A DNA stretch of 64,000 bases from Steroidobacteraceae bacterium (lineage in GTDB: Bacteria > Pseudomonadota > Gammaproteobacteria > Steroidobacterales > Steroidobacteraceae). The translations under genes and the position numbers were made by a program. Positions 2,550-57,540 of the stretch are shown in pieces. Position 1 is the stretch's first letter, and each line of letters starts with the position of its first letter. The DNA lies in NCBI GenBank assembly GCA_046347255.1, contig JAXMGO010000007.1, positions 18,031-82,030 on the forward strand, read 5' to 3'. The notes under the pieces were generated by a model, which was not told the origin of the DNA, searched no databases, and saw nothing but the letters and a program-made list of their open reading frames with translations.

Positions 2550-4604
2550 TCAGGAGGTCCAGCCCGTGCCCTGGCCGTAGGGCACGCGGCGCACGAGGTC
2601 CTCGATGTGGCGGATGCGGCCGCCGTCGATGCGGAACAGTTGCGCGTGCAGGTCGGTCCAGGGCGCGAGGCAGGAGGCGGGCACCTGCACGCGCCCGGTG
2701 CCCGGGATCTCCACGGCGCGCGTGGTCGCCGGGTTGTCGAGCGTGGCGAGGTCGAGCACCAGCCCGGCCGCCTCGTCCACCAGCCAGGTGCGATGTTCGC
2801 GCAGGCGCGCGACGCGCGCGAGGAAACCGGCGTCGAGCTCGCCGGCGCAATCGGCCGCGTACAGCCGGAAGCCGGGCACCGCCGGGTCGAGGGCCGGCGC
2901 CTGCGCATTGCCGCTCGCGGCCACGCCGTTCTCGCGCCGCCGGCAGCCGGCCGCCAGCGGCGCGCGCGCGCCAGCGCGCGCCGTGAAGGCCTCGTGGTAC
3001 TGCTCGACCGCGGCGAGCAGGGCGGCGCGCGGCGTCGCGTTGCCCTTGGCACTCAATGCCGGATCGGGCGCCGCGAAGCCCTGCGGGTCGAGGTTGGCGA
3101 GCAACGGCGGCACGAACATCGTGTAGGTCGCGCCCTTGAGCTCGACCTCGGAGCCGCCGTCGCCGTGCGACTTCACGACCGCCTCGACTTCGGGGCGCGC
3201 GATCAACGTCTCGATCTCCGTGACCAACCCGCCGGCCGTGCGGTAGCGCAGCGCCAGCGCGGCGAACAGCCCGAACTCATCCAGCGCGCCGTACCAGCCC
3301 GCCTGGCCGGTGGCCGGGTCGGCGAGGAAGGTGCCCGCGCCGCGCAGGCCGACCAGGCTCTTCCACAGGCCCTCGCCCAGCGCCACGTCGCGCCCGTTCT
3401 CGGTGTAGCGCACGCCGGGCGCGAGCGGCAGGTCCCAGGGCGCGTTGCGGACCAGGCCGTCGAGCACGCGGGTGGTGAGCGCGCGCAGCTGCGCGCGGGT
3501 CGCGGTCGGGACCGGCTTCGCCGGCGGGCGCGTCGCGGCGTAGGTGAGGCTCACGGTGGGCGGGCGCTGCGGCACGACCTGGCGCGAGCCGAACGGCACC
3601 TCCATCAGCGTCATCTCGATGTAGCGGAACGAGCCGTTGATCACCTTGAACGCCTCGGTGACCTGGTGGCAGCGCGGCGTGCGGAAGTACGGCGGGATCT
3701 TCCAGTCGTTGCCGGCGCGGAAGTGGATCGACTCGAGCGTGCCGTCGAAGTCCCACACCGACTGTCCGAGCACCGCGCCGCGCTCGATGTCGACCACCGC
3801 CGCGCGGCGGTCGCGGATGCGCGTCACGAAGGCCATCAGGCCGAGCTGGTACTGCTCCTTCGCCGACAGCGTGATGAAGTTGGTCGCCGTGTCGGAGTGG
3901 CCGTAGCCCTCGACCTTCGGCTGGTGCACGGTGCGGCGCGCGTGCTCGATGCGCTCGCAGTCGTCGCGGAACGGATAGACGCCGGCGCCGTCATTGCGCT
4001 CCAGCGACTGGAAGTAGATCCACGCCGCCGCCTCGAGCGCCTCGCGCGACTGGCGCTGCGCCGGCGGGATCGGCTCGAACCACACCGGATCGGGCTGGCC
4101 GAGCTCCTCGTAGGTCTTCGCGCCGTGCGGATCGCGGATGACGAACTGCTCGGCCCAGGCGATCTCGCGGCCGCGCATCTGGAGGGTCGCGATCAGGATG
4201 CAGCCCTGGCCGTTCTCGACCGCGTTGGCGATGACGCCGGCGAGGCCGTTCTCGGGCTCGGCGAAGTGATGGCGGTAGCGCCCGAGCCGCTCGAGCGTGC
4301 GCCAGCTGCCGTCGCCGAGCGGCAGCCGCTGGTCGTTCTCCGCATAGAAGGCGTCGGCGGCGAAGGGCGCGCGCGCCGGATCGTGCGCGACGAGCGCCTC
4401 GAGGTAGGTGTCGAGCATGCGCTCGAGGAAGGCCCGATCGTAGGGCGCGAGGGCGGCGGGTTGCGCGGTGGCCGGCGTCGCATTCGGCGCCGCGTCCTGC
4501 GCGGCGGCCCGGCCCGCGGCGAGGGCCGCGGCGGTTCCGGTCACCAGCGCGGCACCGGCGCCGGCCATCACGTCGCGACGGCTGATCGTATCGCGGGTCT
4601 TCAC
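2550..4604 (-). CDS. hypothetical exported protein with two tandem homologous halves (Tat-type signal)
   Basis: 684-aa ORF. N-terminus SRRDVMAGAGAALVTGTAAALA resembles a twin-arginine signal. The two halves share recognisable similarity (FYAENDQRLPLGDGSWRTLERLG vs RYTENGRDVALGEGLWKSLVGLRG). Confidence 0.6.
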   Translation of the reverse strand: MKTRDTISRRDVMAGAGAALVTGTAAALAAGRAAAQDAAPNATPATAQPAALAPYDRAFLERMLDTYLEALVAHDPARAPFAADAFYAENDQRLPLGDGSWRTLERLGRYRHHFAEPENGLAGVIANAVENGQGCILIATLQMRGREIAWAEQFVIRDPHGAKTYEELGQPDPVWFEPIPPAQRQSREALEAAAWIYFQSLERNDGAGVYPFRDDCERIEHARRTVHQPKVEGYGHSDTATNFITLSAKEQYQLGLMAFVTRIRDRRAAVVDIERGAVLGQSVWDFDGTLESIHFRAGNDWKIPPYFRTPRCHQVTEAFKVINGSFRYIEMTLMEVPFGSRQVVPQRPPTVSLTYAATRPPAKPVPTATRAQLRALTTRVLDGLVRNAPWDLPLAPGVRYTENGRDVALGEGLWKSLVGLRGAGTFLADPATGQAGWYGALDEFGLFAALALRYRTAGGLVTEIETLIARPEVEAVVKSHGDGGSEVELKGATYTMFVPPLLANLDPQGFAAPDPALSAKGNATPRAALLAAVEQYHEAFTARAGARAPLAAGCRRRENGVAASGNAQAPALDPAVPGFRLYAADCAGELDAGFLARVARLREHRTWLVDEAAGLVLDLATLDNPATTRAVEIPGTGRVQVPASCLAPWTDLHAQLFRIDGGRIRHIEDLVRRVPYGQGTGWTS

Positions 4605-4697
4605 GTCGCTGCCCCCTCGAGGCTCCGTGCCGCGGGTCGCGGCCAGGGGACAAGCGTAGCGCCAACCGGTGCCCGGGGCGCAAGCCTTTCGCCGCGG

Positions 4698-5348
4698 TCA
4701 GCCGGCCATCAGCCCCGGCTTGCCGGCCTGCCAGCGCGCGAGCTCGGTCTCGAGCAGCGCGACGTGCTCGACCTCCTCGGCGGCAAGCTCGCGGTAGAGC
4801 TGCTGTTCGGGCGAGCCGGCCGCCACGGTGCGGGCGCGCTCGGTGAAGAAGGCCACGGCGCGTTTCTCGAAGGTGATCGCGGCCCGGAACAGCGTGGCCG
4901 GATCGTCGATGGAGCCGTCGACGCCGGCGTTGATCGCCGCGATGTCGACGCGGAAGCCGGTGGTCGGCTCGGGCATGCTCACGTGGTAGCGACGGCTGAG
5001 CGTGTCCATGTGCTCGCGCTCCATCTCCGAGAAGCGCCCGAACAGCGCCTTGAGCACCGGGTCGGAGACGCGGGCGGCGGCACGGTCATAGAACGCCTGG
5101 CCGCCGAGTTCGATCTGGAAGGCGGCGCGGATCGCATCCAGCCCGGCCTCGCCCTTCACGGCGCCGCGGCTCAGGGCCTCGAGGCGGCCGCCGCAATGCG
5201 GGCACATGCCGTAGGGGAAGGCGAAACCCTCGCTCACCTTGGCGCAGCTCTGGCAGCGCCACTGCAGCGTCGCGCCGGCACAGCAGATGTAGGACTCCTC
5301 CGAGTCGAGTGGCTGCTGGCACTTCGGGCAGACTCCGACGCCTGACAT
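4698..5348 (-). CDS. rubrerythrin/ferritin-like diiron protein with N-terminal Cys-rich zinc-ribbon
   Basis: 216 aa starting MSGVGVCPKCQQ. Four CxxC pairs at N-terminus, then ferritin-like ExxH motifs (EMEREH, EEVEH). Same strand as and adjacent to the NfnAB-like gene. Confidence 0.75.
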   Translation of the reverse strand: MSGVGVCPKCQQPLDSEESYICCAGATLQWRCQSCAKVSEGFAFPYGMCPHCGGRLEALSRGAVKGEAGLDAIRAAFQIELGGQAFYDRAAARVSDPVLKALFGRFSEMEREHMDTLSRRYHVSMPEPTTGFRVDIAAINAGVDGSIDDPATLFRAAITFEKRAVAFFTERARTVAAGSPEQQLYRELAAEEVEHVALLETELARWQAGKPGLMAG

Positions 5349-5368: not shown

Positions 5369-7759
5369 TCAGTGGGACGTGGGCGTACCGGCGGGCGCCG
5401 CCGCGGCCGGTTTCGCGGGCGCGGCGGCCGCGGGTGCCGCGGCCTCGGCCGGCGCGACATCCTCGGGCAGCAACGGCCACTTCGACTTGCCGCCGCGCAG
5501 CCAGGTGCTGATGGCCTTCGCCGCGCGCCGTCCGGCACCCATCGCGAGGATGACCGTCGCGCCACCGGTGACGATGTCGCCGCCGGCGAACACGCCCGGC
5601 AGGTTGGTGCACTGGCTGGGTTCGTCGGCGGCGATGTTGCCCCAGCGATTGAGCGCCAGCCCCGGCGTCGCGCGCCCGATGATCGGGTTCGGTTTGGTGC
5701 CGAGGGCGTAGATCACCGTGTCGCAGTCGAGCTCGACGAACTCGTCCGTCGGCACCGGCTTGCGCCGGCCGCGCTCGTCGGGCTCGCCGAGCTGCATCTT
5801 CTGCACCTTCATGCCGCGCACGTCGCCGGCCTCGTTCAGCAGGATCTCGACCGGGCCGTGCAGGAAGAAGAACTCGACGCCCTCCTCGCGCGCGTGCCGC
5901 AGCTCCTCGATGCGGGCGGGCGCCTCGGCCTCCGAGCGGCGATAGACGCAGCGCACGCGCTCGACGCCGAGCCGGCGCGCCACCCGCAGGCAGTCCATGG
6001 CGGTGTTGCCGGCGCCGATGACGACCACGCTCTTGCCGCGGCTGATCGGCGTGTCCAGGTACGGGAAGCGGTCGCCGCCCATCAGGTTGACGCGGGTGAG
6101 GAACTCGTTGGCCGAGTAGACCTGGCCAGCGTTCTCGCCCGGGATGCCGAGGAAGGCGGGCGCGCCGGCGCCAGCGCCGACGAACACCGCGTCGTAGCCC
6201 ATGCGTCCCATCAGGTCGGGGATCGTGAAGGTCTTGCCGATGACCTTGTTGGTCTCGAAGCGCACGCCCATGTCGCGCAGGCGCTGAACTTCGCGCGAGA
6301 TGATGTCGCGCGGCAGGCGGAAGGCCGGGATGCCGTACTGCAGGACGCCACCGAGCACGTGCAGCGCCTCGTACACCGTGACCTCGCCGCCCTCGCGCAC
6401 CAGGTCGGCTGCGGCCGCGAGGCCCGCGGGTCCCGAGCCGACGATGGCGATGCGGCCGAGCTTCGCGGCCACCTTGGGCGGCACCGCCTTCGGCGCGCGC
6501 GCATGGTCGCCGACGAAGCGCTCCAGGCGGCCGATGCCCACGGCCTCGAGCTTCGGCGCCTTGCTGCGCAGCAGCAGGCACTGCGCCTCGCACTGGGTCT
6601 CCTGCGGGCAGACGCGGCCGCACACCGAGGGGAAGACGCTCGATTCGTGGATGGTCGCGAGCGCGCCGTCGAAGTCGCGCAGCAGCACCTTGCGGATGAA
6701 GGTCGGGATGTCGATGCCGACCGGGCAGCCGGCGATGCACGGCGCCTTGTTGCACTGGATGCAGCGCTCGGCCTCGCGCAGCGCGTCGGCGATCGAGTAG
6801 CCGAGGTTCACCTCGTTGAAGTTGTGCGAGCGCTCCGACGCGTCGCGCTCGGGCATGCGCACCTGCTCGGGCTCGAGGGCGGCGAACTTCTTGTAGTTGC
6901 GCCGCCCCTGCGTCACCAGCTGCTTCTCGACCTGGCAGACGTGCTCGAGGTCGGCGTTGGCCTCGGCCTCCTGGGAGCGGAAGCGCTTCTGCCGCGCCAT
7001 CAGCTCCTTGAAGTCGACCTGGTGGCCGTCGAAGTCCGGGCCGTCGACGCAGGCGAACTTGACCTCCCCGCCCACCGTCACGCGGCAGGAGCCGCACATG
7101 CCGGTGCCGTCCACCATGATGGTGTTGAGCGAGACCAGGGTGCGCACGCCGTAGGGCCGCGTGGCCTCGACGCAGGCGTTCATCATCGGCAGCGGGCCGA
7201 TGGCGATCACCAGGTCGGGGCGGTCGCGCTCCAGCACCTCTTTCAGCGGCCCGGTGACCTGGCCGGCGCGGCCGTAGCTGCCATCGTCGGTGCCGATGAT
7301 CAGCTCGTCGCAGCTGGCCCGGAACTTGTCCTCCCAGAAGACCAGCGGCTTGCTGCGGAAGCCCATGATCGCGGTGGTGCGGTTGCCGGCCGCGCGGAAG
7401 GCCCGCAGCTGCGGGAACACCGGCGCGACGCCCAGGCCGCCGCCGACCAGCACCACGTGGCCGACCTTGGCGACATGCTGCGCGAGGCCGAGCGGACCGA
7501 CGAAATCCGGGAAGCTGTCGCCCTCGCGGAAGTCCTCGCGCATCTCCTGCGTGGTCTTGCCGAGCGTCTGCACGACCATGGTGACGGTGCCGCGCTCGCG
7601 GTCGAAGTCCGCGACCGTGAGCGGGATGCGCTCGCCGCCCTCGAACAATCGCACCATGACGAAGTGCCCGGGCTCGGCGGCGCGCGCGATGTCCGGCGCC
7701 TCGACCTCCCAGAGGAAGGTGGATTCGGTCAGGTCCTCGCGCCGGACGATCGGGTACAT
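5369..7759 (-). CDS. fused NfnA-like (FAD/NAD, 2Fe-2S) and GltD-like (NADPH-dependent glutamate synthase small-subunit family) oxidoreductase
   Basis: 796-aa single ORF. N-terminal ~280 aa is PyrK/SudB-like (GGGLGVAP, C-x-C cluster). The remainder carries GltD-type Cys clusters (CIQCNKAPCIAGCP, CGRVCPQETQCEAQC) and a GSGPAGLAAA FAD/NADPH motif. Confidence 0.8.
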   Translation of the reverse strand: MYPIVRREDLTESTFLWEVEAPDIARAAEPGHFVMVRLFEGGERIPLTVADFDRERGTVTMVVQTLGKTTQEMREDFREGDSFPDFVGPLGLAQHVAKVGHVVLVGGGLGVAPVFPQLRAFRAAGNRTTAIMGFRSKPLVFWEDKFRASCDELIIGTDDGSYGRAGQVTGPLKEVLERDRPDLVIAIGPLPMMNACVEATRPYGVRTLVSLNTIMVDGTGMCGSCRVTVGGEVKFACVDGPDFDGHQVDFKELMARQKRFRSQEAEANADLEHVCQVEKQLVTQGRRNYKKFAALEPEQVRMPERDASERSHNFNEVNLGYSIADALREAERCIQCNKAPCIAGCPVGIDIPTFIRKVLLRDFDGALATIHESSVFPSVCGRVCPQETQCEAQCLLLRSKAPKLEAVGIGRLERFVGDHARAPKAVPPKVAAKLGRIAIVGSGPAGLAAAADLVREGGEVTVYEALHVLGGVLQYGIPAFRLPRDIISREVQRLRDMGVRFETNKVIGKTFTIPDLMGRMGYDAVFVGAGAGAPAFLGIPGENAGQVYSANEFLTRVNLMGGDRFPYLDTPISRGKSVVVIGAGNTAMDCLRVARRLGVERVRCVYRRSEAEAPARIEELRHAREEGVEFFFLHGPVEILLNEAGDVRGMKVQKMQLGEPDERGRRKPVPTDEFVELDCDTVIYALGTKPNPIIGRATPGLALNRWGNIAADEPSQCTNLPGVFAGGDIVTGGATVILAMGAGRRAAKAISTWLRGGKSKWPLLPEDVAPAEAAAPAAAAPAKPAAAAPAGTPTSH

Positions 7760-7989: not shown

Positions 7990-10434
<2,445 letters not shown>

Positions 10435-11496
10435 TTATAGCGTGATAACGCGTCCTTGTTCCACGTGGAACGCGCGCTCCGGAGGGCCGAATTCCGGGCG
10501 GTCGGGGTCGAGGCTGGTGATGATCAGCTGGCAGTCCAGGCTGGCGATTTCATCGATCAGGAGGCGGGTCTTCTCGCGGTCGAGTTCGGCGGCCGGATCG
10601 TCCAGCAGCAGCATCGGCAGGCGCTCGGGCGCCGTCCTGGACGCCAGGCGGGCCATGGCCAAGGTCATCGAGGCGCCCAGGAGCTTCTGCTGCCCCCGGG
10701 AGAGCACTTCGCGCGCCAGCCGGCCCTCCACCTTCAGCGCCACATCGAACCGATGGGCCCCGGTCCCGGTGCTCCCGCGCTCCCGATCCCGGGCTAGGTG
10801 CAGGGCGAGCGATTCCATCAGGCTGTGCTCCTGGCTCCAGCCCCGGTGGAAACTCCAGTCGAGCTCCAGCCCCCCCAGCAGGCGCCGGCAGATCGCCTGC
10901 CACTCCGAATGCAGGGCGTCGAGCAGCGACTGGCGCGAGAGGGCCAGCCCCTCCCCCAGCCGTGCAAGCTCCGGGTCCCAGGGATCCGTGGAATCTCCGA
11001 GCTTGAGCGCGGCGTTCCGCTGCCGCAGGGCCCGGGTGTAGTCGCTCCAGGCCCGGATGAAGCCAGGTTCCACGTGGAACACTCCCCAGTCGACCCAGCG
11101 ACGCCGCTGGAGGGGTCCCTCCTCGACCAGACGGTGGATCCCCGGGTCGATCAGCTGCAGCGGAAGCAGGGCCGACAGCTCGGCCAGTGAATCCACGGGG
11201 CGGCGATCGATCCGGGCCTCGACGCCGCGCTCCCGGTCGCAGCCGACGCCCAGATCGTGCGGCAGGTTGTCCGCCGTACGCCCGAAGACCAGGAGCCGGG
11301 CCTCGCCCCGCCGGATGAGCCGCTCGGTGTTCCGCGTGCGGAAGGAGCGTCCGCGCCCCAGCAGGTGGATGGCCTCAAGGAGCGAGGTCTTGCCCGATCC
11401 GTTGGGACCGGAGATCAGGTTCAGCCGCGGAGCGAATTCCAGCTCCGCGGCCGGGATGCAGCGCAGGTCCTGGACCCGAAGCTCCTGCAGGCTCAT
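10435..11496 (-). CDS. recF: DNA replication and repair protein RecF
   Basis: 353 aa. Walker A GPNGSGKTSLLEAI; synteny. Confidence 0.95.
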   Translation of the reverse strand: MSLQELRVQDLRCIPAAELEFAPRLNLISGPNGSGKTSLLEAIHLLGRGRSFRTRNTERLIRRGEARLLVFGRTADNLPHDLGVGCDRERGVEARIDRRPVDSLAELSALLPLQLIDPGIHRLVEEGPLQRRRWVDWGVFHVEPGFIRAWSDYTRALRQRNAALKLGDSTDPWDPELARLGEGLALSRQSLLDALHSEWQAICRRLLGGLELDWSFHRGWSQEHSLMESLALHLARDRERGSTGTGAHRFDVALKVEGRLAREVLSRGQQKLLGASMTLAMARLASRTAPERLPMLLLDDPAAELDREKTRLLIDEIASLDCQLIITSLDPDRPEFGPPERAFHVEQGRVITL

Positions 11497-11523
11497 GCCG
11501 GTGGCGCGGGCCCGGCGCCGCGC

Positions 11524-12621
11524 CTACAGGCGCATCGGCATGACGACGAACTTGACGCTCGCATCCCTTGGGCTGCGGATCAGGCAGCTGCTGTTCGCGT
11601 CCGTCAATGCGACTTCCACGGTGTCGGCGTCGACAGCTCCAAGCGCGTCCAGCAGGTAGGTGACGTTGAAGCCGATCTCGACCTCGCCACCCTTGTAGCT
11701 CACCTCGATCTGGTCCTCCGCCTCTTCCTGCTCGGGGTTATGTGCCTGGATCGTCAGCAATCCGTCGGCGAAAACGAGGCGAATTCCGCGGTACTTCTCG
11801 TTCGAGAGGATCGACGTGCGCTGCAGCGCCTGCCGCAGCAGGTCCTTGGCGGCGGACATCGTCCGCGTCGGTTTTTCCGGGATGACGCGGCCATATTCCG
11901 GGAACTTGCCGTCAATCAGCTTCGAAGTGAAGCGAATTTCGCCGATCTGGGCGCGAACATGGTTCGATCCGATGCTGAGCTCGAGATCGCCGTCGGTGGC
12001 CAGGATCCGCTGCAGCTCCAGCACGCCCTTGCGCGGCACGATGACCTGCTGGCGCGTCGTGACCTCATCGGCCAGCTCGGTCTCGCAGAGCGAGAGCCGG
12101 TGCCCGTCGGTCGCCACCGCGCGCAGCGTCTTGCCGTGCGTCTCGAGCAGGGTCCCGTTGAGGTAGTAGCGCACGTCCTGCTGCGCCATCGCGAAGTGCG
12201 TCTTCTCGATCATCCGCCGCAGCCCCGAGCGCGTGAGCTTCAGGACCTGCTTGCTGTTGATGTCCTCGATCACCGGGAATTCGCTCGCCGGAAGCGTCGA
12301 GAGGCTGAAGCGGCTGCGCCCGGCGCGCAGCACGATCTTCTCGCCCTCGCGCGTGATCGTGACCGAGGACTTCTCCGGGAGCGTGCGCACGATGTCGAGG
12401 AACTTGCGTCCCGGCACGGTCACCTCGCCCGGCTGCTGCACCGACACCTCGGCGGCCGCGACCAGTTCCACCTCCAGGTCCGTGCCGGTGATGCCCAGGC
12501 GGTCCTTCGCCGCCACCAGCAGCACATTGGCCAGCACTGGCATCGTCTGGCGGCGTTCGACCACGCCGATCACGCTCTGCAATGCACCGAGCAGGTTTTC
12601 CCGCGTCGCGGAGACTTTCAT
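11524..12621 (-). CDS. dnaN: DNA polymerase III beta sliding clamp
   Basis: 365 aa. DnaN-like sequence throughout; synteny. Confidence 0.95.
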   Translation of the reverse strand: MKVSATRENLLGALQSVIGVVERRQTMPVLANVLLVAAKDRLGITGTDLEVELVAAAEVSVQQPGEVTVPGRKFLDIVRTLPEKSSVTITREGEKIVLRAGRSRFSLSTLPASEFPVIEDINSKQVLKLTRSGLRRMIEKTHFAMAQQDVRYYLNGTLLETHGKTLRAVATDGHRLSLCETELADEVTTRQQVIVPRKGVLELQRILATDGDLELSIGSNHVRAQIGEIRFTSKLIDGKFPEYGRVIPEKPTRTMSAAKDLLRQALQRTSILSNEKYRGIRLVFADGLLTIQAHNPEQEEAEDQIEVSYKGGEVEIGFNVTYLLDALGAVDADTVEVALTDANSSCLIRSPRDASVKFVVMPMRL

Positions 12622-12844
12622 GGGCTGTTCCGGCGTTCCTTGAGGAGTGGCTACGGATCTATCTTCTTCTTAGGTTAGATAGATCAGTTATGAATATTAA
12701 GCCTGTGGGTCATGGTGAGAACAGCGGAATCGCCTGTGATTCACGGCGCCGCACACCGGCCGTGGGGTCCAACAAGCCGACCCATGAGCTGTGCGTGACC
12801 TGTGGGTTGTTTAGTCCACAGTTTCGTGCACAGGAAATCCACCC

Positions 12845-14170
12845 TCATCCCGCCAGGGTTCTCAACAGGTTCATGTAGTCCTCGGCCATCCGCTGGTCGC
12901 TGTCGCGCAGCTCGCGGATGCGCTTGCACGCGTGCAGCACCGTCGTGTGGTCGCGGCCGCCGAACGCGTCGCCGATCTCCGGCAGGCTGTGGCTGGTGAG
13001 TTCCTTGGCGAGGGCCATCGCCACCTGGCGCGGGCGCGCCACCGAGCGGCTGCGGCGCTTGGAGAGCAGGTCGGCGATGCGGACCTTGAAGTAATCGGCG
13101 ACGGTCTTCTGGATGTTCTCGACGGTCACCAGGCGCGCCTGCAGTGTCAGCAGGTCCTTGAGGGCTTCCTTGGTGAACTCCAGCGTGATCGGAACGCCGG
13201 CGAAGCGCGCGTTGGCGATCACCCGCCGCAGCGCGCCCTCGAGCTCGCGCACGTTGGAGCGGATGCGCTTGGCGATGAAGAAGGCGACTTCCTCGGGTAG
13301 GGCGACGCCCGCGGCCTGCGCCTTGCCGATCAGGATGGCCACGCAGGTCTCGAGTTCCGGCGGTTCGATGGCCACCGTGAGGCCCCAGCCGAAACGGGAC
13401 TTCAGCCGTTCCTCCAGCCCGTCGACCTCCTTCGGATAGCGGTCGCAGGTGAGGATGATCTGATGCTGGCCCTCCAGCAAGGCATTGAAAGTATGGAAGA
13501 ACTCTTCCTGCGAGCGCTCCTTGCCGGCGAAGAACTGGATGTCGTCGATCAGCAGGGCGTGGAGGGTGCGGTAGGAGTTCTTGAAGGCGTCGATCGTGTT
13601 GTGCTGGAGGGAGCGCACCATCTCGCTCACGAAGCGCTCGGAGTGCACGTAGGCGACCCGGGCCTGGGGGTTGCGCTCCAGGATCAGGTGGCCGATCGCG
13701 TGCATCAGGTGGGTCTTGCCGAGGCCGACGCCGCCGTAGATGAACAGCGGGTTGTAGGCGCGGCCGGGGTTCTCCGCCACCTGGAGCGCTGCCGCCTTGG
13801 CGAAATGGTTGCTCTTGCCCTCGATGAAGCTGTCGAAGGTGAAGTCCGGGTTCAGGCGTGCGCAATTTGGGGCGGCCCGGCCGGGCGGGCGGAACGCTCG
13901 TCCGGACCTCGGAGGCCGCGCCGGCACGAGGCCGGGAGCCGACCTCCAGCACCACGCTCTCGTGCTCGCCGGAGGCCTGCATCAAGGGCTTCGATCCGTG
14001 CCAGGGCATGGCCGCGGACCCAGTCGACCACGAAGCGGTTGGGGGCCAGCAGCCGTAGCGAGCCATTCACCTCGATGGCCTGCAGGGCCTGATCCAGGTG
14101 TTGAACTGCTGTTCAGGCAGTTCGGATTCCAGCGCGCGCAGGCACCGGGTCCACAGCGACTCCTCCACCG
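12845..14170 (-). pseudogene. dnaA: chromosomal replication initiator DnaA, reading frame broken by at least two apparent indels
   Basis: N-terminal domain I (VEESLWTRCLRALESELPEQQFNT…LLAPNRFVVDWVRGHALARIEAL) starts at a GTG with upstream GGGGGAGG. It shifts frame near 14.09 kb and again near 13.9 kb before the intact AAA+ and DNA-binding domains (12845..13927 frame). Confidence 0.85.
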
Positions 14171-14305
14171 GCCTCTGGCCTCCCCCTCGCGCTCGACCGT
14201 GACTCCCGGCAGGCAGGGCGCGCCGCCGCACGAGATCGCGGTGCCCTGCCTCGGGAAAAGGGGCGGAAGTCTATACCGGGCCTTGGGCGGCCGGAAGGCG
14301 CTGTA

Positions 14306-14334
14306 TTGACACCCGAGGGGCGCGAGCCTACTCT
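14306..14334 (+). promoter_or_regulatory. candidate sigma70 promoter of rpmH (TTGACA - 17 nt - TACTCT)
   Basis: -35 TTGACA at 14306-14311 and -10-like TACTCT at 14329-14334, about 40 nt upstream of the rpmH ATG. Confidence 0.4.
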
Positions 14335-14373
14335 GCCCGGCCATTTTCCCTTCGAGTTCAGGGCTGTTGCACC

Positions 14374-14553
14374 ATGAAACGCACCTATCAACCCAGCAAA
14401 GTGCGCCGCGCGCGGCACGCACGGTTTCCGTGCCCGCATGGCGACCAAGAATGGGCGCAAGGTCCTCAGCCGGCGCCGGGCGAAGGGCCGCAAGCGGCTG
14501 ATCCATGGAGCTGCGCGCGGGGCCATCGCATCCACCGGCGGCAATCGCCGTGA
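14374..14553 (+). pseudogene. rpmH: 50S ribosomal protein L34, frame disrupted
   Basis: Starts [14 protein letters not shown] then leaves frame. The conserved continuation [28 protein letters not shown] is readable in the +1 frame, consistent with a 1-nt deletion. Confidence 0.7.
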
Positions 14554-14903
14554 CCGAGCCCGGGAGCGCCCGCGCGCTCTTCCGCCGCGCGCGGCGCTGC
14601 GCCGGCCGGCACAGTTCCGTGACGTCTACGCCGAAGGCCGGATCGGCAATGAGATGTTCGCCGCCAACATACTCGCCAGCAGCACCGACACCGCCCGGCT
14701 CGGGCTGTCCATCGCCGTGCGCACGCTCGGCGGCGCCGTAGGGCGCAATCGCGTGCGCCGCCTCATCCGTGAATCCTTCCGCTACCGGCGCGCGCTGCCG
14801 GCGGTCGACATCGTGGTCAGCGCGCGCACGCGAGCGCGTGGCGCGAGCGCCGCGGAGCTGCGCGGCGCGCTCGAGCGCCTGGCAGCGGATCGCCGCGTCG
14901 TGA
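14550..14903 (+). pseudogene. rnpA: RNase P protein component, frame disrupted
   Basis: Conserved core (…[11 protein letters not shown]…[32 protein letters not shown]…) is readable across more than one frame with no in-frame stop. Boundaries approximate. Confidence 0.6.
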
Positions 14904-15144
14904 GCACGCTGATCCGCGCCCTGCACCCGCGCCTCTACCAGCTGACCCTGAGTCCGCTGCTCGGGCCGCGCTGCCGCTTCCACCCCTCCTGCTCGCATTA
15001 CATGCAGGAGGCCGTCGCCACGCACGGCGCGTTGCGCGGCGTGTGGCTGAGGCTGCGGCGCCTGGCGCGCTGCCATCCGTTCAATCCAGGCTACGATCCG
15101 GTGCCGCCGCGCAAGACCGCAAAGGCCTGCTGCCATGCCCATGA
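14900..15144 (+). pseudogene. yidD: membrane protein insertion efficiency factor YidD, frame disrupted
   Basis: YidD signature [44 protein letters not shown]…[13 protein letters not shown]. Expected stop (TGA within ATGA at 15141-15144) lies in a different frame from the body. Boundaries approximate. Confidence 0.55.
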
Positions 15145-16905
15145 CCCCCAACCTGCGCGTGTTCCTGTGGGCGCTGCTCGTCGCGGCGCTCTTCATGAGC
15201 TTCGAGATGTGGCAACACGACTATCCGCCGCCGCCCGCGGTCCGCACCGGCGGCGACGGCCCCGGCGGCGGCGCTCGACAGCGGCGTGCCGACCGCGGCC
15301 GCGCCGGTTGCTCCGAACGCCGCGCCCGCGGCGAGGCCGCGGAGTGCCGCGGGGCCCGCTGCGGCGAAGACGATCTGCTGCGCGGCGCCGTCGGCGCAGC
15401 CGCGTGCTGCCGTTGCGGCGCCTGCCGCCGCGGCGGGCGCCGAAGCCACGCCCGACGCCGCGCTCGCCGGCGCGCCGCTCGTGCACGTCGTCACCGACGT
15501 GCTGGACCTCGACGTGAGCCTCGCGGAGCGGCGAGCTGCGGCGCGCCGACCTGACGCAGTACGCGCGCGTGAAGGGCCAGCCCGAGCCGGTGCGGCTGCT
15601 CAACCGCGACGGCGCCGAGAGCCTCTACGTCCTGCAGAGCGGGCTCGCCGGCGCCGAGGGTGCCGCCGCGCCGACGCACGTCGCCATGTACAGCAGCAGC
15701 GCGCGCGAGCTGCGCCTCGCCGACGGCGCCGATGAACTGCGCGTGCCGCTGACCTGGACCGACAGCGTCGGCGTCACCGTGACCAAGACCTACGTGTTCC
15801 GCCGCGGCTCGTACCAGGTGGGGCTCAGTACGCGATCACCAACGCTTCCGCCCAGCCGATAGGTGTACCAGCCCTACGCGCAGCTGCTGCGCAACAACCC
15901 GCCGGTCGAGCGCTCGATGTTCAACGTCGAGAGCTACTCGTTCAAGGGCCGGCGTACGACGGCACCAAGTACCAAGCTCAAGCTCGGCGACAAGGACACG
16001 CACCTCGACCGTGACGTTGCCGGTGGCTGGGTGGCCGCGCTGCAACACCACTTCGTAGCCGCGATCGTGCCGCCCGTTGGGGGAGAGCTGGCACTACCGC
16101 CTGAAGATCCAGGGCAACCAGTTCCTGCTCGCGACCAGCGCCGCGAGGCCGCAGCCTCGCGCCGGGCGCGAGCGCAACTCAGCAGACGCTGTTCGTCGGT
16201 CCCAAGCTCCAGTCGCAGCTCGACGATGCCGACCCCGCGCACGGACCTGGTGGCGGACTACGGCTGGCTCACGACGCTGGCGCGCCCGCTGTTCTGGCTG
16301 CTCGAGAAGGTGCACGCGCTCATCGGCAACTGGGGCTTCACGATCATCATCGTGACCTTCCTGCTCAAGCTCCTTTTCTATCCGCTCTCCGGAGCGAGCG
16401 GCAAATCGATGGCGAAGATGAAGACGCTGGCGCCGCGGATTGAAGAACCTGCAGGAGCTCTACAAGGACGACCGCGAGAAGCTCGGCCGCGCCACGACAT
16501 GGAGATGTACCAGAAGGAGAAGGTCAATCCGCTGGCCGAGTGCCTGCCGATGCTGATCCAGATCCCGGTGTTCCTGGCGTTCTACTGGGTGCTGCTCGAG
16601 AGCGTGGAGATGCGCCAGGCGCCGTTCCTCGCTGGCTCAACGACCTCTCGTCCAAGGACCCGTACTACATCCTGCCCGCGATCATGGCGGGCGCGATGTT
16701 CGTGCAGTTCAAGCTGAACCCGCAGATGGGCGACCCGGTGCAGCAGAAGATCATGATGATCATGCCGCTCGCGATGTCGGTGACCTTCGCGTTCTTCCCC
16801 TCGGGCCTGGTGCTCTACTGGGTGACGAACACCGTCCTCTCGATCCTGCAGCAGTGGAACATCAACCGCCGCATCGCCGCCCAGGCCGCGAAGGCGCGGG
16901 CGTAG
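15135..16905 (+). pseudogene. yidC: membrane protein insertase YidC, many frame disruptions
   Basis: YidC N-terminus [27 protein letters not shown]. Conserved segments are spread over at least five ORF fragments in all three frames, ending with the conserved C-terminus (…[22 protein letters not shown]) in frame 16540..16905. Confidence 0.85.
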
Positions 16906-16940
16906 CGGCGGGCGCCGCCGCGGCGCAGCCGGCTGATACC

Positions 16941-18274
16941 GTGCCGGCCGATACCATCGTCGCAGTCGCGACCCCGCCAAGGCGCGGCGCCATCGGCATC
17001 GTCCGCCTGAGCGGCCCGGCGGTGCCGGAGGTCCTTGCGCTGCGCCGGCGCGCTGCCCGAGCCGCGCCGCGCCACGCTGTGCGGGTTCCGCGATGCCGCC
17101 GGCGCGGCGATCGACACCGGCCTCGCGCTGCATTTTCCGCACCGCATTCCTATACCGGCGAGCCCATGCTGGAACTGCAGGGCCACGGCGGCGCGGTGGT
17201 GCTCAGTACTCTGGTGCAGCGGGCGGTGGCGCTCGGCTGCCGGCGCGCGCGCGCCGGGGAGTTCCCGAGCGCGCCTTCCTCAACGGGCGGCTCGATCTGG
17301 CGCAGGCGGAGGCGGTGATCGACCTCATCGACGCGGCCTCGGCGGCCGGTGCGCGCGCCGCGCTGCGCTCGCTCCGGGGCGAGTTCTCGAACGCCGTCCA
17401 CGCGCTGGTCGAGGGGCTCACCGCGCTGCGGGTGCAGGTGGAGGCGGCCATCGACTTCGCCGACGAGGACATCGAGCCGCTCGCCGGCGGCGGCGTGGTC
17501 GCACGCTGCGCGCAGCTGCAGGAGCGCCTGGCCGCGCTGCTGGCGCAGGGCCGCGAGGGGACGCGTGCTGACCGAAGGCGTCACGGTCGTCATCGCCGGA
17601 CGCCCGAACGCCGGCAAGTCCACGCTCCTCAACCGCCTCGCCGGCCACGACGCCGCCATCGTCAGCGCCACGCCCGGCACGACGCGCGACCTGCTGCGCG
17701 AGCGGATCCTCATCGACGGCCTGCCGCTGCACCTCATCGACACGGCCGGCCTGCGACGGGGCGGGGATGACATCGAAGCCGAGGGCATGCGGCGCGCGCG
17801 CGCCGCCATGGCCCAGGCCGACCGCGTGCTGTTCCTCGTGGACGTGGTCGCCGATCCGACCGCGGCGAGCCTCGCCGACCTGCGCGAGGAGTTGCCGGCC
17901 AGCGTCCCGTCACGGTGGTCTACAACAAGTGCGACCGCCTGCCCGGGGCCTGGCCGGCGGACACCGAGCGCGCTGCCTCTCCGCCGCGACCGGCGCGGGG
18001 CTCGACGCGCTGCGCGCGCACCTCAAGGCGATCGCCGGCTGGAGCGGGGCGGAGGAGGCGTGGTCTCGGCGCGCGCCCGCCACTCGTCGAGGCGCTCGCC
18101 GCCGCCCAGGCGCACCTGCTCGCGGCGCGGCGCGAGCTCGGCGCGAGCGCCGCGCCGGAACTCGTCGCCGAGGAGCTGCGGCTCGCGCAGCGCGGGCTCG
18201 AGCTGATCACCGGCGAGGTGAGTTCGGACGACCTGCTGGGGCGGATCTTCGGGGAGTTCTGCATCGGCAAGTGA
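16941..18274 (+). pseudogene. mnmE: tRNA modification GTPase MnmE, multiple frame disruptions
   Basis: TIVAVATPPRRGAIGIVRLSGP N-terminus; G-domain [16 protein letters not shown]…DTAGLR; C-terminal FCIGK*. Segments lie in three different frames. Confidence 0.85.
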
Positions 18275-18338
18275 GGCCCGATTCTCCAATCCTGGAGCAG
18301 GATTTGCCATGACTCCATGTATGGGTAACCTCGGCCGC

Positions 18339-18800
18339 ATGAAGACGTCCACTCCCGGGTCGTCCGCAGCACGCCCCGTCCACGGACCAGCGCCCGGCCG
18401 GCGCGGAGCGGCTTGCTGCCCCCGCCCTGCGCGCCTTCTTCGCCATCGCGGCGCGCTGGGGCCTGAAGCGCCGCCCAGCAGCGCACGCTGCTCGGCAGCC
18501 CGCCGTCCTCCACCTTCTTCAAGTGGAAGAAGGAGCAGGGGCGAAGAACCTGCCGCGCGACGTGCTGGAGCGCATCAGCTACGTGCTGGGCATCTACAAG
18601 GCGCTGCAGATCCTGCTGCCCGAGCCCGAACAGGCCGACCGCTGGATCACGACGCCCAACGCGGCGCCGCTGTTCGGCGGCGGCACGGCACTGGAGCGCA
18701 TGCTGGCAGGCAACGTCGGCGACCTGTTCGCGGTGCGCCAGTACCTCGACGCGCAGCGCGGCGACTGGCATGGCGCGCGCGCCGCGGCCGAGGTCCGTTG
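18339..18800 (+). pseudogene. Xre-like/DUF2384 antitoxin (ParS/MbcA-like), frame disrupted
   Basis: Conserved antitoxin core AKNLPRDVLERISYVLGIYKALQILLPEPEQADRWITTPNAAPLFGGGTALERMLAGNVGDLFAVRQYLDAQRG; N-terminal part is in another frame. Boundaries approximate. Confidence 0.6.
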
Positions 18801-18829
18801 CAGGCGGTGGCGGGGCGGGCGCCGCTTCC

Positions 18830-19505
18830 GCCGTGCCGCTCGCGCATCCGCTGGCGCCAAGCCTACCGCCTCGTCCCCAGCCGCTTTCCGCCGGTCGGTC
18901 CCTGGGACCTGTCCGCCCGCGAGGACTTCGAGGCGCTGGCCGAGGTGGAAGCGCTCACCAGCCTTCGCGCCTGCGCGAGGAGCTCGGGGCACTCGCCTGA
19001 TCCCGAAGGAGCGCCGCGTCGCCGGCCCCGGCACCACGCCGATCATGGCGGCCTTCACCCACCTGAACCCCGAAGGCTCCGCGCTTCGGCGACGGCAGCT
19101 ATGGCGTCTTCTACGCCGGCCGCGAGCTCGAGACCGCGATCCGCGAGACCGTGTACCACCGCGAGCGCTTCATGGCGCGCACCGCCGAGCCGCCGATGGC
19201 GCTGCAGATGCGCTGCTACGTCACGTCGCTCTCCCGCCGGCTGCACGACCTGCGGGGCGGCTACCAGCGGGAGCACGCGCCCGACGACTACGGTCCCGGC
19301 CAGCGCCTCGGCGCCGCGCTGCGCGCCGCCGGCTCCGACGGCCTGGTCTACGACAGCGTGCGGCACCGCAGCGGGCAGTGCGCCGCGCTCTTCTGGCCGG
19401 ACTGCGTCGCCCTGCGTCGAGGCGGGCCACTACGCCTACCACTGGGACGGAGCGCGCATCGCGCACGTCGTCGAGCTCACGGCGGTCCCGCTGGCCGGCG
19501 CCTGA
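18830..19505 (+). pseudogene. RES-domain toxin (ParT/MbcT-like), frame disrupted
   Basis: RES-family hallmarks spread over three frames: YRLVPSRFPPVGPWDLSAREDFEALAEVEALTS / GDGSYGVFYAGRELETAIRETVYHRERF…DYGPGQRLGAALRAAGSDGLVYDSVRHRSGQCAALFWPDCV / VEAGHYAYHWDGARIAHVVEL. Confidence 0.65.
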
Positions 19506-19522
19506 CGTACAATCCCGCCCCC

Positions 19523-21274
19523 ATGCGCCACGCTCCCTCCCATGACGTCATCGTGGTCGGCGGCGGCCACGCCGGCACCGAGGCCGCACTCGCCGCGGCG
19601 CGCATGGAGCGCGCGCACGCTGCTCGTGACGCAGAACATCGAGCAGCTCGGCGCGATGTACGGCCCGGCGATCGGCGGCGTCGGCAAGGGGCACCTGGTG
19701 CGCGAGATCGACGCGCTCGGTGGCGCGATGGCGCGCGCCGCCGACCGCGCCGGCATCCAGTTCCGCACCTTGAACGCCAGCAAGGGCCCGGCGGTGCGCG
19801 CGACGCGCGCAGGCCGACCGCCTGCTCTACCGGCGCGCGATCCGCGCCCGGCTCGAGACGCAGCCGGGCCTGGAGCTCTTCCAGCAGGAGGTCGCGGACC
19901 TCATCGTCGAAGGCGGGCGCGTGCGCGGCGTGCTGACCGTCGGCGGCGTGCGCTTCGAGGCGCCGGCGGTGGTGCTGACCGTGGGCACCTTCCTCGCCGG
20001 CCGCATCCACGTCGGGCTCGAGAACCACGCCGGCGGCCGCGCCGGCGAGCCGCCATCGGTCGCGCTGGCCGCGCGCCTGCGCGAGATCGCGCCGCGCGTC
20101 AGGCGGCTCAAGACCGGCACGCCGCCGCGCATCGACGGGCGCAGCATCGACTTCGATCGCCTGGTGGCGCAGCCGAGCGATGAGCCGCGGCCGGTGTTCT
20201 CCTTCCTCGGCCGGCGGGCGAACTCCGCCGCGACTGCTACATCACGCACACCACCGCCGCGACCCGCACCCCGATCATCCGCCGCCCGCCTTCGACCGCT
20301 CGCGCTGTTCACCAGGCGCATCGAGGGCGTCGGGCGGCGCTGCCCTGCCCTTCGGTCGAGGACAAGGTGCACCGCTTCGCCGCGCGCGATTCGCACCAGG
20401 TGTTCCTCGAGCCCGAGGGCCTCGAGACACGCAAGAGGAGATCTATCAAGAACGGCATCTCCACCAGCCTGCCGTACGAAGTGCAGCAGGCCTTCGTGCG
20501 CACGATCCCGGGGCTCGAGCAGGCGCGCATCACGCGGCCGGGCTATGCGATCGAGTACGACTTCTTCGATCCGCGCGACCTGCGCGGCTCGCTCGAGACG
20601 CAGTCGGTCGCGAGGCCTCTACTTCGCCGGCCAGATCAACGGCACCACCGGCTACGAGGAAGCGGCGGCGCAGGGGCTGCTCGCGGGACTGAACGCCGCG
20701 CTGCAGGTGCGCGGCGACGCTTCCTGGTGCCGACGCGCGGCGAGGCCTACCTCGGCGTGCTGGTCGACGACCTCGTGACGCGCGGCACGCGCGAGCCTAC
20801 CGCATGTTCACCAGCCGCGCCGAGCACCGCCTGGTGCTGCGCGAGGACAATGCCGACGCGCGCCTCACGCCCGTCGGCCACCGCCTCGGGCTGGTCGACG
20901 ACGAGCGCTGGGCCTTCTTCGAGGCCAAGCAGGCCGCGATCCAGGCGGTACGCGCCGGCGTCGCGCCCCCCGATGCCGACGAGCGGCTGGCGGAGCAGGT
21001 GCGCTCCGCGATCGAGGCCGACGCGCTCTACGCCGGCTACATCCGCCGCGCCGAGCAGGAGATCGCGCAGCAGCGGCGGCACGAGCAGTGGCCGCTGCCG
21101 CGCGATCTCGACTACCACGCGCTTGCTGGCCTCTCGCACGAGATCCGGCAGAAGCTCGACGAGGCGCGGCCCGACACGCTTGGGCAGGCGGCGCGCGTGC
21201 CGGGCGTGACGCCCGCCGCGGTGTCGATGCTGCTCGTCCACCTCAAGCGCCGCGCCGGCGCGGCCGGCGCCTGA
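19523..21274 (+). pseudogene. mnmG: tRNA uridine 5-carboxymethylaminomethyl modification enzyme MnmG, several frame disruptions in first ~1.3 kb
   Basis: N-terminus [28 protein letters not shown]. Conserved blocks are distributed over ORFs in different frames up to ~20.8 kb. The last ~470 nt (20804..21274) is a clean frame ending in the MnmG C-terminus. Confidence 0.88.
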
Positions 21275-21321
21275 GCGGCACCGGGCCGGCACGCGGAAGT
21301 TCCAGCCAAGGAGGCCAGCGC

Positions 21322-21918
21322 ATGAAACTCTACTGGTGCCCGAAGACGCGCGCGGTGCGCGCGCTGTGGATGCTCGAGGAACTCGGCCAGCCCTACGAGC
21401 GCGTGCTCATCGACATCCGCGATCCGGTGGCGAAGCAGGACGCAGGCTTCCGCGCCGCCTCGCCGATGGGCAAGGTGCCGGCGCTGGTCGACGGCGCGAC
21501 GCGGCTGTGGGACTCGGGCGCGATCCGCGCCTACCTCGCGGACCAGTACCCGGCGGCCGGCCTGGCGCCGCCCATCGGCCATCCCGATCGCGGCGCGTGG
21601 CTGCAGTGGCTGATGTACACCAATTCGGTGATCGAGCCGGCGATGGCCGAGAAGTTCAGCAAGGCGCCGGCGAGCACGGTGGCACACGGCTGGGGCAGCT
21701 ACGATCAGATGCTCGAGGTGCTGCGCGCCGGCCTCGCGCGCGGCCCCTGGGTCCTCGGCGAACGCTTCAGCGCCGCCGACGTGCTGCTCGGCATGGCCTG
21801 CTACTTCCTGAAGCAGTTCGGCATCCTGCAGGACGAGCCGCTGCTGTTCGCATACATCGAACGCTGTATGGCCAGGCCAGCCCTGCAGCGCGCACTGGCA
21901 CTCGAAGCCCTGCCATAG
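21322..21918 (+). CDS. glutathione S-transferase family protein
   Basis: MKLYWCPKTRAVRALWMLEE… thioredoxin-like GST N-domain followed by a helical C-domain. AAGGAGG ribosome-binding site 8 nt upstream of the ATG. Confidence 0.85.
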   Translation: MKLYWCPKTRAVRALWMLEELGQPYERVLIDIRDPVAKQDAGFRAASPMGKVPALVDGATRLWDSGAIRAYLADQYPAAGLAPPIGHPDRGAWLQWLMYTNSVIEPAMAEKFSKAPASTVAHGWGSYDQMLEVLRAGLARGPWVLGERFSAADVLLGMACYFLKQFGILQDEPLLFAYIERCMARPALQRALALEALP

Positions 21919-22052
21919 GCGCGCGACGCCGGGCCTGGCCCGGCCATCCCGCCGCGTGCCGGAGCCGCCGCCCGCGGGCTTGACCCCCATGCCGGCGCCG
22001 CGTGGTATGGTGTTCCGGCCGGGCGCATCGGCTCGCGAAAGGCAGGGACACC

Positions 22053-22988
22053 ATGTTCGGTATCGACGTCGGCTGGCTGCCGATCATCATCGTCATCGCG
22101 GTGGTGGTCGTCCTCTCCAAGGCCTGGGTCACCGTGCCGCAGGGCTACGCGTACACGCTCGAGCGCTTCGGGCGCTTCAAGAAGACGCTCGAGCCGGGCT
22201 TCCACCTGATCACGCCGGTGTTCGAGGCCATCGGCCGGCGCATGAACATGATGGAGCAGGTGCTGGACGTGCCGCGCCAGGAAGTCATCACCAAGGACAA
22301 CGCCATGGTCGGCGTCGACGCGGTGGTGTTCTACCAGGTGCTCGATGCCGCCAAGGCGGCCTACGAGGTCGACAACCTGCGCCTGGCGGTCACGAACCTC
22401 ACGATGACCAACATCCGCACCGTGGTTGGCTCGATGGACCTGGACGAGACGCTGTCGAAGCGCGATGACATCAACCACCGCCTGCTGCGGGTGGTCGACG
22501 ACGCGACCATGCCCTGGGGCATCAAGGTCACGCGCATCGAGATCCGCGACATCCAGCCGCCGGCCGACCTGATCGAATCGATGGGCCGCCAGATGAAGGC
22601 GGAGCGCGACAAGCGCGCCAACATCCTCGAGGCCGAGGGTTTCCGCCAGGCCGCGATCCTCAAGGCCGAGGGCGAGAAGCAGGCCGCGGTGCTGCAGGCC
22701 GAAGGCGCCCGCGAGGCCGCGTTCCGCAACGCCGAGGCGCGCGAGCGCCTGGCCGAGGCCGAAGCCAAGGCGACCACGCTGGTGTCGACGGCGATCGCGC
22801 AGGGCAACGTGCAGGCGATCAACTACTTCGTCGCGCAGAAATACGTCGAGGCGATGAAGGACTTCGCCCACTCGCCGAACCAGAAGGTGTTCTTCATGCC
22901 GGTCGAGGCCTCGGGGATCCTCGCCTCGCTCGGCGGCATCGCCGAACTGGCGCGCGACGCCGTGCAGAAGCCGGCGGGAAAGCCGTGA
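22053..22988 (+). CDS. SPFH/band-7 stomatin-like membrane protein
   Basis: N-terminal TM then SPFH domain, followed by a coiled region rich in EAEG/KAEGE repeats. Next gene is NfeD-like, the usual partner. Confidence 0.85.
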
Positions 22989-54708: not shown

Positions 54709-55329
54709 TCACGCCAGCAGGCGGGCCACGAAATCCGCGATTCCGGGCCGGTCGGTCCGCTGCTGCGCACCGTGGCCGTCCAGGATGGCCGCGAGCTCCG
54801 CCACCGCCTGCTCGAAGCGGTCGTTGACCACCACGTAGTCGAACTCGCTCCAGTGGGACATGTCGGCGACCGCGTCGGCCAACCGGCGGGCGATGACCTC
54901 CGGGCTGTCGGTGCCGCGCCCCCGCAGGCGCTGCTCCAGCGTGGCGCGCGAGGGGGGCAGGATGAAGATGCTGGTGCAGGCCGGGAGCGCCGCGCGCACC
55001 TGGCGCGCGCCCTGCCAGTCGATCTCCAGGATCACGTCCCGGCCGGCGGCGAGCTGCGCCTCGAGTTGCCGCTGGCTGGTGCCGTAGCAGTTGTCGAACA
55101 CGCGCGCGTGCTCGAGGAAGTCGCCGGCCGCGACCATCCGCTCGAAGCACGGCAGGTCGATGAAGTGGTAATCGCGCCCGTCCACTTCGTTGGGGCGCTG
55201 GCGGCGCGTGGTGTGCGAGACCGAGACCGCGAGGTTGGCGCGCGCGGCGAGCAGCGCCTTCACCAGGCTGGTCTTGCCGGCGCCGGAAGGCGCGGAGATC
55301 ACGTACAGATGGCTGGTCGGACGGCTCAT
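54709..55329 (-). CDS. gmk: guanylate kinase
   Basis: P-loop SAPSGAGKTSL and conserved Gmk body. Confidence 0.9.
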   Translation of the reverse strand: MSRPTSHLYVISAPSGAGKTSLVKALLAARANLAVSVSHTTRRQRPNEVDGRDYHFIDLPCFERMVAAGDFLEHARVFDNCYGTSQRQLEAQLAAGRDVILEIDWQGARQVRAALPACTSIFILPPSRATLEQRLRGRGTDSPEVIARRLADAVADMSHWSEFDYVVVNDRFEQAVAELAAILDGHGAQQRTDRPGIADFVARLLA

Positions 55330-57450: not shown

Positions 57451-57540
57451 AGAATTTCATGCACCTTAAGGGTTATTGAAATTCTATTCCACTCCGATTA
57501 CTATGCACCGGACATGTTAATCAATTCGGAGCTGACACTC

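Follow-up and report, generated by a model that had tools for sequence, protein, structure and literature searches.

Results

A Frame-disrupted Block around dnaA

In the 64,000-nt stretch of Steroidobacteraceae DNA analyzed here (the window), nine genes around dnaA are broken by about 50 small insertions and deletions, which raises the question of whether these genes have been inactivated or whether the sequence is at fault. The reading-frame jumps reported by a first-pass annotation are confirmed to be truly in the sequence and far beyond chance: a GC3 frame plot and a Viterbi segmentation by codon usage agree on some 33 short coding segments (35–510 nt) between ~13.86 and 20.8 kb, and frameshift-aware alignment reveals the same jumps, the reading frame switching about every 150–200 nt from position 13,862 to position 20,913. 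Searches by tblastn with the stop-to-stop ORFs of relatives were very noisy, because off-frame ORFs cross-match in a genome of ~70% GC, and were replaced by a custom frameshift-aware dynamic-programming aligner. The references were the proteins of L081, a public Steroidobacteraceae MAG contig from the same population as the window, and the intact proteins of L163, an 88%-identical outgroup that has all of its genes intact. This protein-to-DNA alignment with homologs, a check that the first-pass annotation had proposed, places at least 48 frameshifts in the block (48 with the L163 proteins as queries), distributed over dnaA (N terminus only), rpmH, rnpA, yidC, mnmE, an Xre/RES gene pair, and mnmG.

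Comparison with L081 by blastn delimits the block sharply, with the first difference at 13,862 and the last at 20,913 (7.05 kb), and with no difference at all in 9,356–13,861 and 20,914–22,573. The disruption had been thought to extend over 12,845–20,800; most of dnaA (12,845–13,861) is in fact clean. Within the block there are 328 substitutions and 130 gap openings amounting to 176 gap bases, so that the proposed run of indels is real but is accompanied by an excess of substitutions that had been overlooked. The density of errors along the block is uneven, 16,500–17,000 for instance being nearly clean, and any explanation must therefore add partial polishing or mosaicism.

Genes within the Block

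The six frameshifts in dnaA (12,845–14,168, minus strand) fall within codons 28–100 (~14,084–13,863) in the alignments with both L081 and L163. Codons 101–439 are intact and identical to L081 at 338/338 residues, and a 360-aa ORF contains the Pfam domains Bac_DnaA and Bac_DnaA_C; L081, L163, and L082, a short-read metagenome contig, all encode an intact DnaA of 439 aa. All of the remaining genes of the block lie on the plus strand. The frame shift suspected in rpmH (L34; 14,374–14,508) is explained by one extra base at ~14,415–14,416, and the stop codon is lost, so that reading runs on into rnpA and yidD. In rnpA (14,550–14,901) there are two frameshifts, at ~14,595 and ~14,879. Frameshifts had also been claimed for yidD (14,879–15,146), where neither the L081 nor the L163 alignment contains one; the gene carries only in-frame indels and substitutions and retains 81/88 residues of L081.

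There are 12–14 frameshifts in yidC (15,135–16,905), its C-terminal 90 residues being clean (16,632–16,900), 8 in mnmE (16,900–18,274, start approximate), and 11 in mnmG (19,523–21,274), where they extend to ~20,796. The shifts postulated earlier for dnaA, yidC, mnmE, and mnmG are thus all present, but the minimum numbers given for them were too low. Likewise, the list of affected genes holds for dnaA, rpmH, rnpA, yidC, mnmE, and mnmG but omits two genes between mnmE and mnmG, encoding an Xre-like antitoxin (18,339–18,769; 3–4 frameshifts; PF20432/PF09722 in L081) and a RES-domain toxin (18,797–19,505; 5 frameshifts; PF08808 in L081). The last ~470 nt of mnmG, described previously as intact, are indeed in a single frame but contain a few substitutions, the last of them at 20,913. 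Two motifs of MnmG that are, to our knowledge, invariant across MnmG proteins are altered in the window, MSCNPAIGG to M-YGPAIGG and GPRYCPS to GRRCCPS, and both are intact in L081.

Flanks and the Remainder of the Window

The flanking genes are as undamaged as first described. To the left, gyrB, recF, and dnaN (7,990–12,621, minus strand) contain no frameshifts and encode proteins 100% identical to those of L081, the DNA differing by 7 synonymous SNPs and no indels. To the right, gst (21,322–21,918, plus strand) is likewise free of frameshifts with a protein 100% identical to that of L081, the Band_7/SPFH gene (22,002–22,988, plus strand) is intact, and the DNA equals L081 up to the point at which that contig ends (22,573). 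Smaller tracts with substitutions only occur at 3.8, 5.0–5.3, and 9.1–9.4 kb. Further frameshift patches at ~36.5, 43.7–46.8, and 49.6 kb were considered and rejected as ordinary gene boundaries, as all coincide with ORF stops. Beyond the block the window looks clean: closely spaced frame changes there (~35–37, 43–47, and 48–52 kb), in those cases inspected by hand, each adjoin the stop codon of an ORF. Structured RNAs were considered as a cause of non-coding-looking stretches, and no Rfam match was found in the window. A scan of DnaA boxes for oriC gave no consensus cluster at up to 1 mismatch, so that "origin-proximal" refers here to gene order only.

The Indels Are Private to the Window

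Every frameshifting indel that was checked is private to the window and absent from L081, L082, and L163. The alignment of the window with L081 and L082 has 21 indel columns, of which 20 are unique to the window and one differs in all three sequences; substitutions unique to the window number 35, and the other two branches have 8 and 10. The alignment of the window with L081 and L163 assigns 108 indel columns and 223 substitutions to the window alone, and 130 substitutions and 35 indel columns to L081 alone, 30 of these columns belonging to two stretches of 15. The outgroup L163 encodes full-length DnaA (439 aa), YidC (586 aa), MnmE (460 aa), and MnmG (604 aa), and also full-length L34, RnpA, YidD, Xre, and RES proteins, each of these block proteins with a complete set of Pfam domains. 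The idea that the errors lie in the comparison assemblies rather than in the window was rejected, since L081, L082, and L163 all lack the frameshifts of the window. L081 itself, from the public MAG GCA_046347215.1, has a few different frameshifts, in mnmE (~4,600–5,340 of L081) and in the N terminus of yidC (~7,256–7,312), so that this assembly has flaws in the block as well; some difficulty seems to be intrinsic to the block, or else mnmE could be decaying in the lineage.

An Error-like Spectrum of Changes

Among the 130 gaps in the blastn alignment with L081, 100 are of 1 nt and 20 are of 2 nt. An outgroup-polarized count (MAFFT) assigns 34 deletions and 29 insertions to the window, with 51 frameshifting window-private indels of 1–2 nt, and there are roughly 90 excess substitutions. 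Taken as errors, these changes would total ~3%, substitutions, deletions, and insertions being about equally frequent, and they ignore selective constraint, as is seen in the altered MnmG motifs and in the breakage of dnaA, rpmH, rnpA, and yidC alike. The association of the indels with homopolymers, which had been suggested as a check, is only modest: for indels of a single base type, deletions lie in runs of at least 3 in 9/19 cases, against a background of 10.5%, but insertions do so in only 3/20. Such a modest link is atypical of a polished nanopore consensus.

A Natural Haplotype beneath the Noise

The window agrees with L163 against L081 at the 130 substitutions and the two 15-column stretches that are found in L081 only. 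Third codon positions account for 145/253 (57%) of the mismatches, and the YidC residues LLEKVHALIGNWG and ESWHYRLKIQ of the window are common to P0121/L163 and other relatives but not to L081. Judged from its sequence, the agreement with the outgroup shows the block to be a genuine, distinct natural haplotype, ~3–4% diverged from L081, and not mere noise superimposed on L081. The noise and the natural divergence share their start and end to within ~100 nt. A clean copy of this haplotype was not recovered, either in a metagenome scan with YidC, where matches reached at most 85% amino acid identity, or in a search of 5.8 billion proteins with the frame-corrected YidC of the window, which returned nothing closer than L081 (89%); look-ups of three other proteins of the window by exact sequence gave no match either.

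Discussion

Because the genes are intact in three independent assemblies, the block is best regarded as a low-quality patch of assembly and not as biology. We consider, with a probability of roughly 0.86, that it is a long-read stretch of a minor strain variant, poorly polished and probably of low depth, and that its genes are not inactivated; the organism almost certainly has intact copies of dnaA, rpmH, rnpA, yidC, mnmE, and mnmG. The first-pass annotation had proposed local indel errors in a long-read segment of low coverage or polished with the wrong reads, and the privacy of the indels with respect to L081, L082, and L163, together with the altered MnmG motifs, supports that reading. The difference in haplotype favors a minor-strain branch or mismatched reads over simple low coverage of a single strain. 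The assembler may have followed a low-abundance strain variant through the block, either along the branch of a bubble or over a gap spanned by a single noisy long read or a few of them; another possibility is that the reads used for polishing came from the dominant strain and could not correct it. In either case the consensus of the block would have kept errors resembling those of raw reads, and the flanks, presumably shared between strains and covered at full depth, would have been polished to perfection.

Could the frameshifts be real? The block might be a decaying copy whose intact counterpart resides elsewhere, on another replicon or in a duplication, or it might belong to a non-viable or relic genome. 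That the block is a distinct haplotype and not pure noise speaks for decay, and the mnmE frameshifts in L081 make some real decay of that gene in the lineage conceivable. The flanks, however, are 100% identical to L081, which leaves no time for decay in situ, and the ~63–130 indel events set against 223 window-unique substitutions are far above the ratio that we would expect of natural change. Nearly all of these indels are of 1–2 nt and are unaccompanied by larger deletions, dnaA, rpmH, rnpA, and yidC are in their normal syntenic place, and the indels are missing from all three independent assemblies. No second copy of dnaA, rpmH, rnpA, or yidC was found within the 64-kb window. We therefore regard real frameshifts as extremely unlikely, and the specific case of a lineage that retains the decayed block in place and depends on an intact copy elsewhere, e.g. 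on a second replicon, as the least credible of all; were it true, the replication-initiation module would have to have moved recently. A genuine pseudogene cluster was likewise rejected, its frameshifts not being reproduced in L081, L082, or L163, as was programmed ribosomal frameshifting or recoding, given that the positions of the ~48 shifts are unrelated to one another and that L163 encodes the homologues in unbroken ORFs.

Two further explanations accept that the fault is technical. If the block were a patch of raw reads from the same strain as L081, every difference would be a sequencing error, and the predominance of window-unique changes (223 substitutions and 108 indel columns) and the corruption of conserved MnmG motifs would be accounted for. 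Pure noise would not, however, be expected to side with L163 at 130 positions and over both 15-column stretches, to produce multi-residue YidC variants that match other members of the family, or to favor third codon positions, and we judge this explanation very improbable. A contig-end or circularization artifact is hardly more plausible. Bacterial assemblies are commonly given an artificial start at dnaA, whose start codon (14,168) lies inside the block, and the errors are strictly local, as they would be had the chromosome been rotated to dnaA before polishing, with a drop of coverage at the junction leaving errors behind. Yet the damage is very asymmetric, reaching ~300 nt into dnaA versus 6.7 kb on the other side, the window is continuous across the supposed junction, and the coincidence of the noisy block with a distinct haplotype is left unexplained.

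The block matters chiefly for quality control. In automated annotation dnaA, rpmH, rnpA, yidC, mnmE, and mnmG will appear as a series of pseudogenes, marker-gene completeness scores will be lowered, and analyses of gene loss or essentiality may be misled. Evidently, a MAG or hybrid assembly can be flawless over tens of kilobases and nevertheless hold a sharply bounded patch of read-level quality. As patches of this kind can fall on a strain-variable segment, errors and haplotype alike may be chimeric relative to the remaining contig.

Indel errors are known to fragment genes in long-read and hybrid bacterial assemblies and MAGs (PMC8103633; PMC12007338, citing Watson and Warr), and both papers report a stronger effect at low coverage. 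The block resembles these cases in that indels of 1–2 nt give strings of apparent pseudogenes that are intact in relatives, but it differs in being a single, sharply bounded 7 kb in otherwise perfect sequence rather than a genome-wide scatter, and in its modest homopolymer link, excess of substitutions, and coincident strain haplotype. Its identical flanks, bounded segment of 3–4% divergence, third-position-biased substitutions, 15-column length differences, and outgroup alleles, like the smaller substitution-only tracts elsewhere in the window, are those of strain-variant bubbles or haplotype switching in metagenome assemblies and of natural homologous-recombination tracts between co-occurring strains, although a natural recombination tract by itself would keep its reading frames and the block carries ~50 frameshifts. 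The clustering of many frameshifted neighbors also recalls the pseudogene clusters of decaying genomes, e.g. those of host-restricted bacteria; unlike those clusters, the genes here are indispensable, the shifts are not found in sister assemblies, the flanks are undiverged, and the indels look like errors.

Frameshifts around dnaA

The window (GC ~70%), whose nearest named relatives are Steroidobacteraceae MAGs, carries gyrB, recF, dnaN and dnaA, in that order, on the minus strand and rpmH, rnpA, yidD, yidC, mnmE, an Xre-like antitoxin gene, a RES toxin gene, mnmG, gst and a Band_7 gene on the plus strand. In a GC3 frame plot the codon phase is steady inside each flanking gene and shifts every 100–400 nt across ~13,850–20,800. 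A Viterbi segmentation by codon usage, for which the long genes of the window itself were the training set, divides this interval into ~33 short coding segments. Outside the interval, each close frame change checked by hand sits beside an ORF stop, the pattern of ordinary gene boundaries. Because the two methods agree and the inspected outside changes adjoin ORF stops, the frame jumps are real and local, and do not come from reading a GC-rich genome by eye.

A search for exact copies of the window's DnaN protein gave two public contigs: L081 (NCBI MAG GCA_046347215.1, JAXMGP010000024.1), spanning window 1,524–22,573, and L082, a 4.2-kb short-read metagenome contig spanning 10,643–14,793. DnaA (439 aa) and L34 (44 aa) are intact in both. 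A third contig, L163 (1.03 Mb, JGI; DNA ~88% identical), was reached through a cluster-member look-up and has all block genes intact with full Pfam domain complements. By blastn, the window equals L081 outside 13,862–20,913 save for 22 substitutions in three small clusters; within this block 328 substitutions and 130 gap openings (176 gap bases) separate the two. The clusters (3765–3825, 4992–5280 and 9085–9355) consist of substitutions only, for the most part at third codon positions, in surroundings that are otherwise identical, and resemble small tracts of natural recombination or strain variation.

L081 proteins, run against the window in a custom frameshift-aware protein-to-DNA aligner, placed six frameshifts in dnaA, all within codons 28–100 (the remaining 338 residues are identical), one in rpmH together with loss of its stop codon, two in rnpA, 11 in yidC with three more in its N-terminal piece, four in Xre, five in RES and 11 in mnmG; a relative's protein as query gave eight in mnmE. 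The first-pass annotation had described a frameshift cluster at 12,845–20,800 striking dnaA, rpmH, rnpA, yidD, yidC, mnmE and mnmG. The cluster itself is confirmed by the plot, the segmentation and the alignment, its bounds and counts are corrected here, and yidD has no frameshift. The intact flanks described there also held, as gyrB, recF, dnaN and gst are free of frameshifts and 100% identical to L081. Queried with the L163 proteins, the window again had 48 frameshifts, and L081 had eight: four in mnmE (L081 ~4600–5341), a compensated pair at the yidC N terminus (L081 ~7256–7312) and two doubtful ones in Xre. These few frameshifts in the same block suggest a segment that varies between strains and is difficult to assemble in this population; as to those in mnmE, either the gene may truly be decaying in the lineage or the block may be imperfect in a second assembly.

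A natural haplotype beneath probable errors

Differences within the block were sorted by branch using L163 as the outgroup. The window alone accounts for 223 substitutions and 108 indel columns, and L081 alone, with the window equal to the outgroup, for 130 substitutions and 35 indel columns, 30 of them in two 15-column stretches. The L081-unique sites show that the window's block is a separate natural haplotype, which contradicts a reading of the block as L081 sequence plus pure noise. Mismatches favor the third codon position (145/253), and the frame-corrected window YidC variants LLEKVHALIGNWG, ESWHYRLKIQ and QSQL...DLVADYG match L163/P0121 and other family members, not L081. The limits of the natural divergence and of the noise coincide to within ~100 nt. 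Between L082 and the window the difference is ~6% across recF and close to nil across dnaN and dnaA, a pattern that points to a mosaic population.

If natural divergence is similar on both branches, the window has an excess of ~90 substitutions. An outgroup-polarised MAFFT count gave 63 window-private indel events, 51 of them frameshifting, divided similarly between deletions (34) and insertions (29). Nearly all indels in the block are of 1–2 nt. Runs of ≥3 bases contain 9/19 deletions, a moderate enrichment over the 10.5% background, and 3/20 insertions, no enrichment. In the three-way alignment of window, L081 and L082 (13,862–14,793), 20/21 indel columns are unique to the window, the remaining one differing in all three, and window-private substitutions number 35 vs 8 and 10 on the other branches. 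The noise turns the MnmG motifs MSCNPAIGG and GPRYCPS into M-YGPAIGG and GRRCCPS and causes small scrambles in 20,150–20,450 where L081 equals L163, and the density of differences is uneven, 16,500–17,000 being nearly clean.

Neighboring elements

The Xre-like antitoxin and RES-domain toxin pair (18339–19505) is inserted between mnmE and mnmG and is kept in L081; in L163 it is preceded by three more genes, for an unknown 178-aa protein, an AAA_14/DUF4143 ATPase and a Lum_binding protein. A low-GC stretch at 55300–62900 (0.56–0.62 vs ~0.70–0.75), to which the codon-usage model gives a non-native score, is possibly a mobile or defence island. It encodes an HTH_3 + Peptidase_M78 protein (55998–57116, minus strand), a ThiF-family E1-like protein (58693–59523) preceded by three small ORFs without a Pfam hit, an AAA_14/DUF4143 ATPase (59761–60966) and an AlbA_2 + HATPase_c_4 protein (61016–62866). 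A 97-nt tRNA-Arg(cct) called by ARAGORN at 4460–4556, within a long minus-strand ORF, is probably a false positive, since Rfam finds no match at the site. No consensus DnaA box (≤1 mismatch) lies in either intergenic region beside dnaA (12622–12845 and 14169–14373); the spacer between dnaN and dnaA is lower in GC (~0.5) and contains degenerate TGTGG/CCACA-like repeats. The GyrB ORFs of two related MAGs (L044 13838–17992 and L003 4721–9202; 1385–1494 aa) carry a ~570-aa insertion, probably an intein, that the window's 805-aa GyrB lacks.

Origin of the block

By what is established for these genes, losing the dnaA N-terminal domain, rpmH, rnpA and yidC together is not viable. Synteny, the identity of the flanks, the sister assemblies and the indel spectrum all contradict a real decayed copy of these genes whose function is covered by another copy elsewhere. 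The block could also be an artefact of circularisation or of a contig end at the dnaA start; the damage is, however, very asymmetric (~300 nt vs 6.7 kb), and the coincident haplotype would be left unexplained.

The flanks have zero divergence from the sister assembly, and the indels do not have the spectrum of natural decay. On the simplest reading, the assembler or polisher produced a low-quality consensus for this stretch. The block would then derive from a less abundant strain variant, perhaps as one branch of a bubble or as a gap that one or a few noisy long reads bridged, or else as a segment unpolishable with short reads from the dominant strain, in contrast to shared flanks at full depth; the sequencing platform and exact pipeline step are inferred. 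Sister assemblies, flank identity and indel spectrum thus support the earlier proposal of localized indel errors rather than real gene inactivation. The block is an assembly-quality artefact over an ordinary strain-level recombination tract and is of low biological interest.
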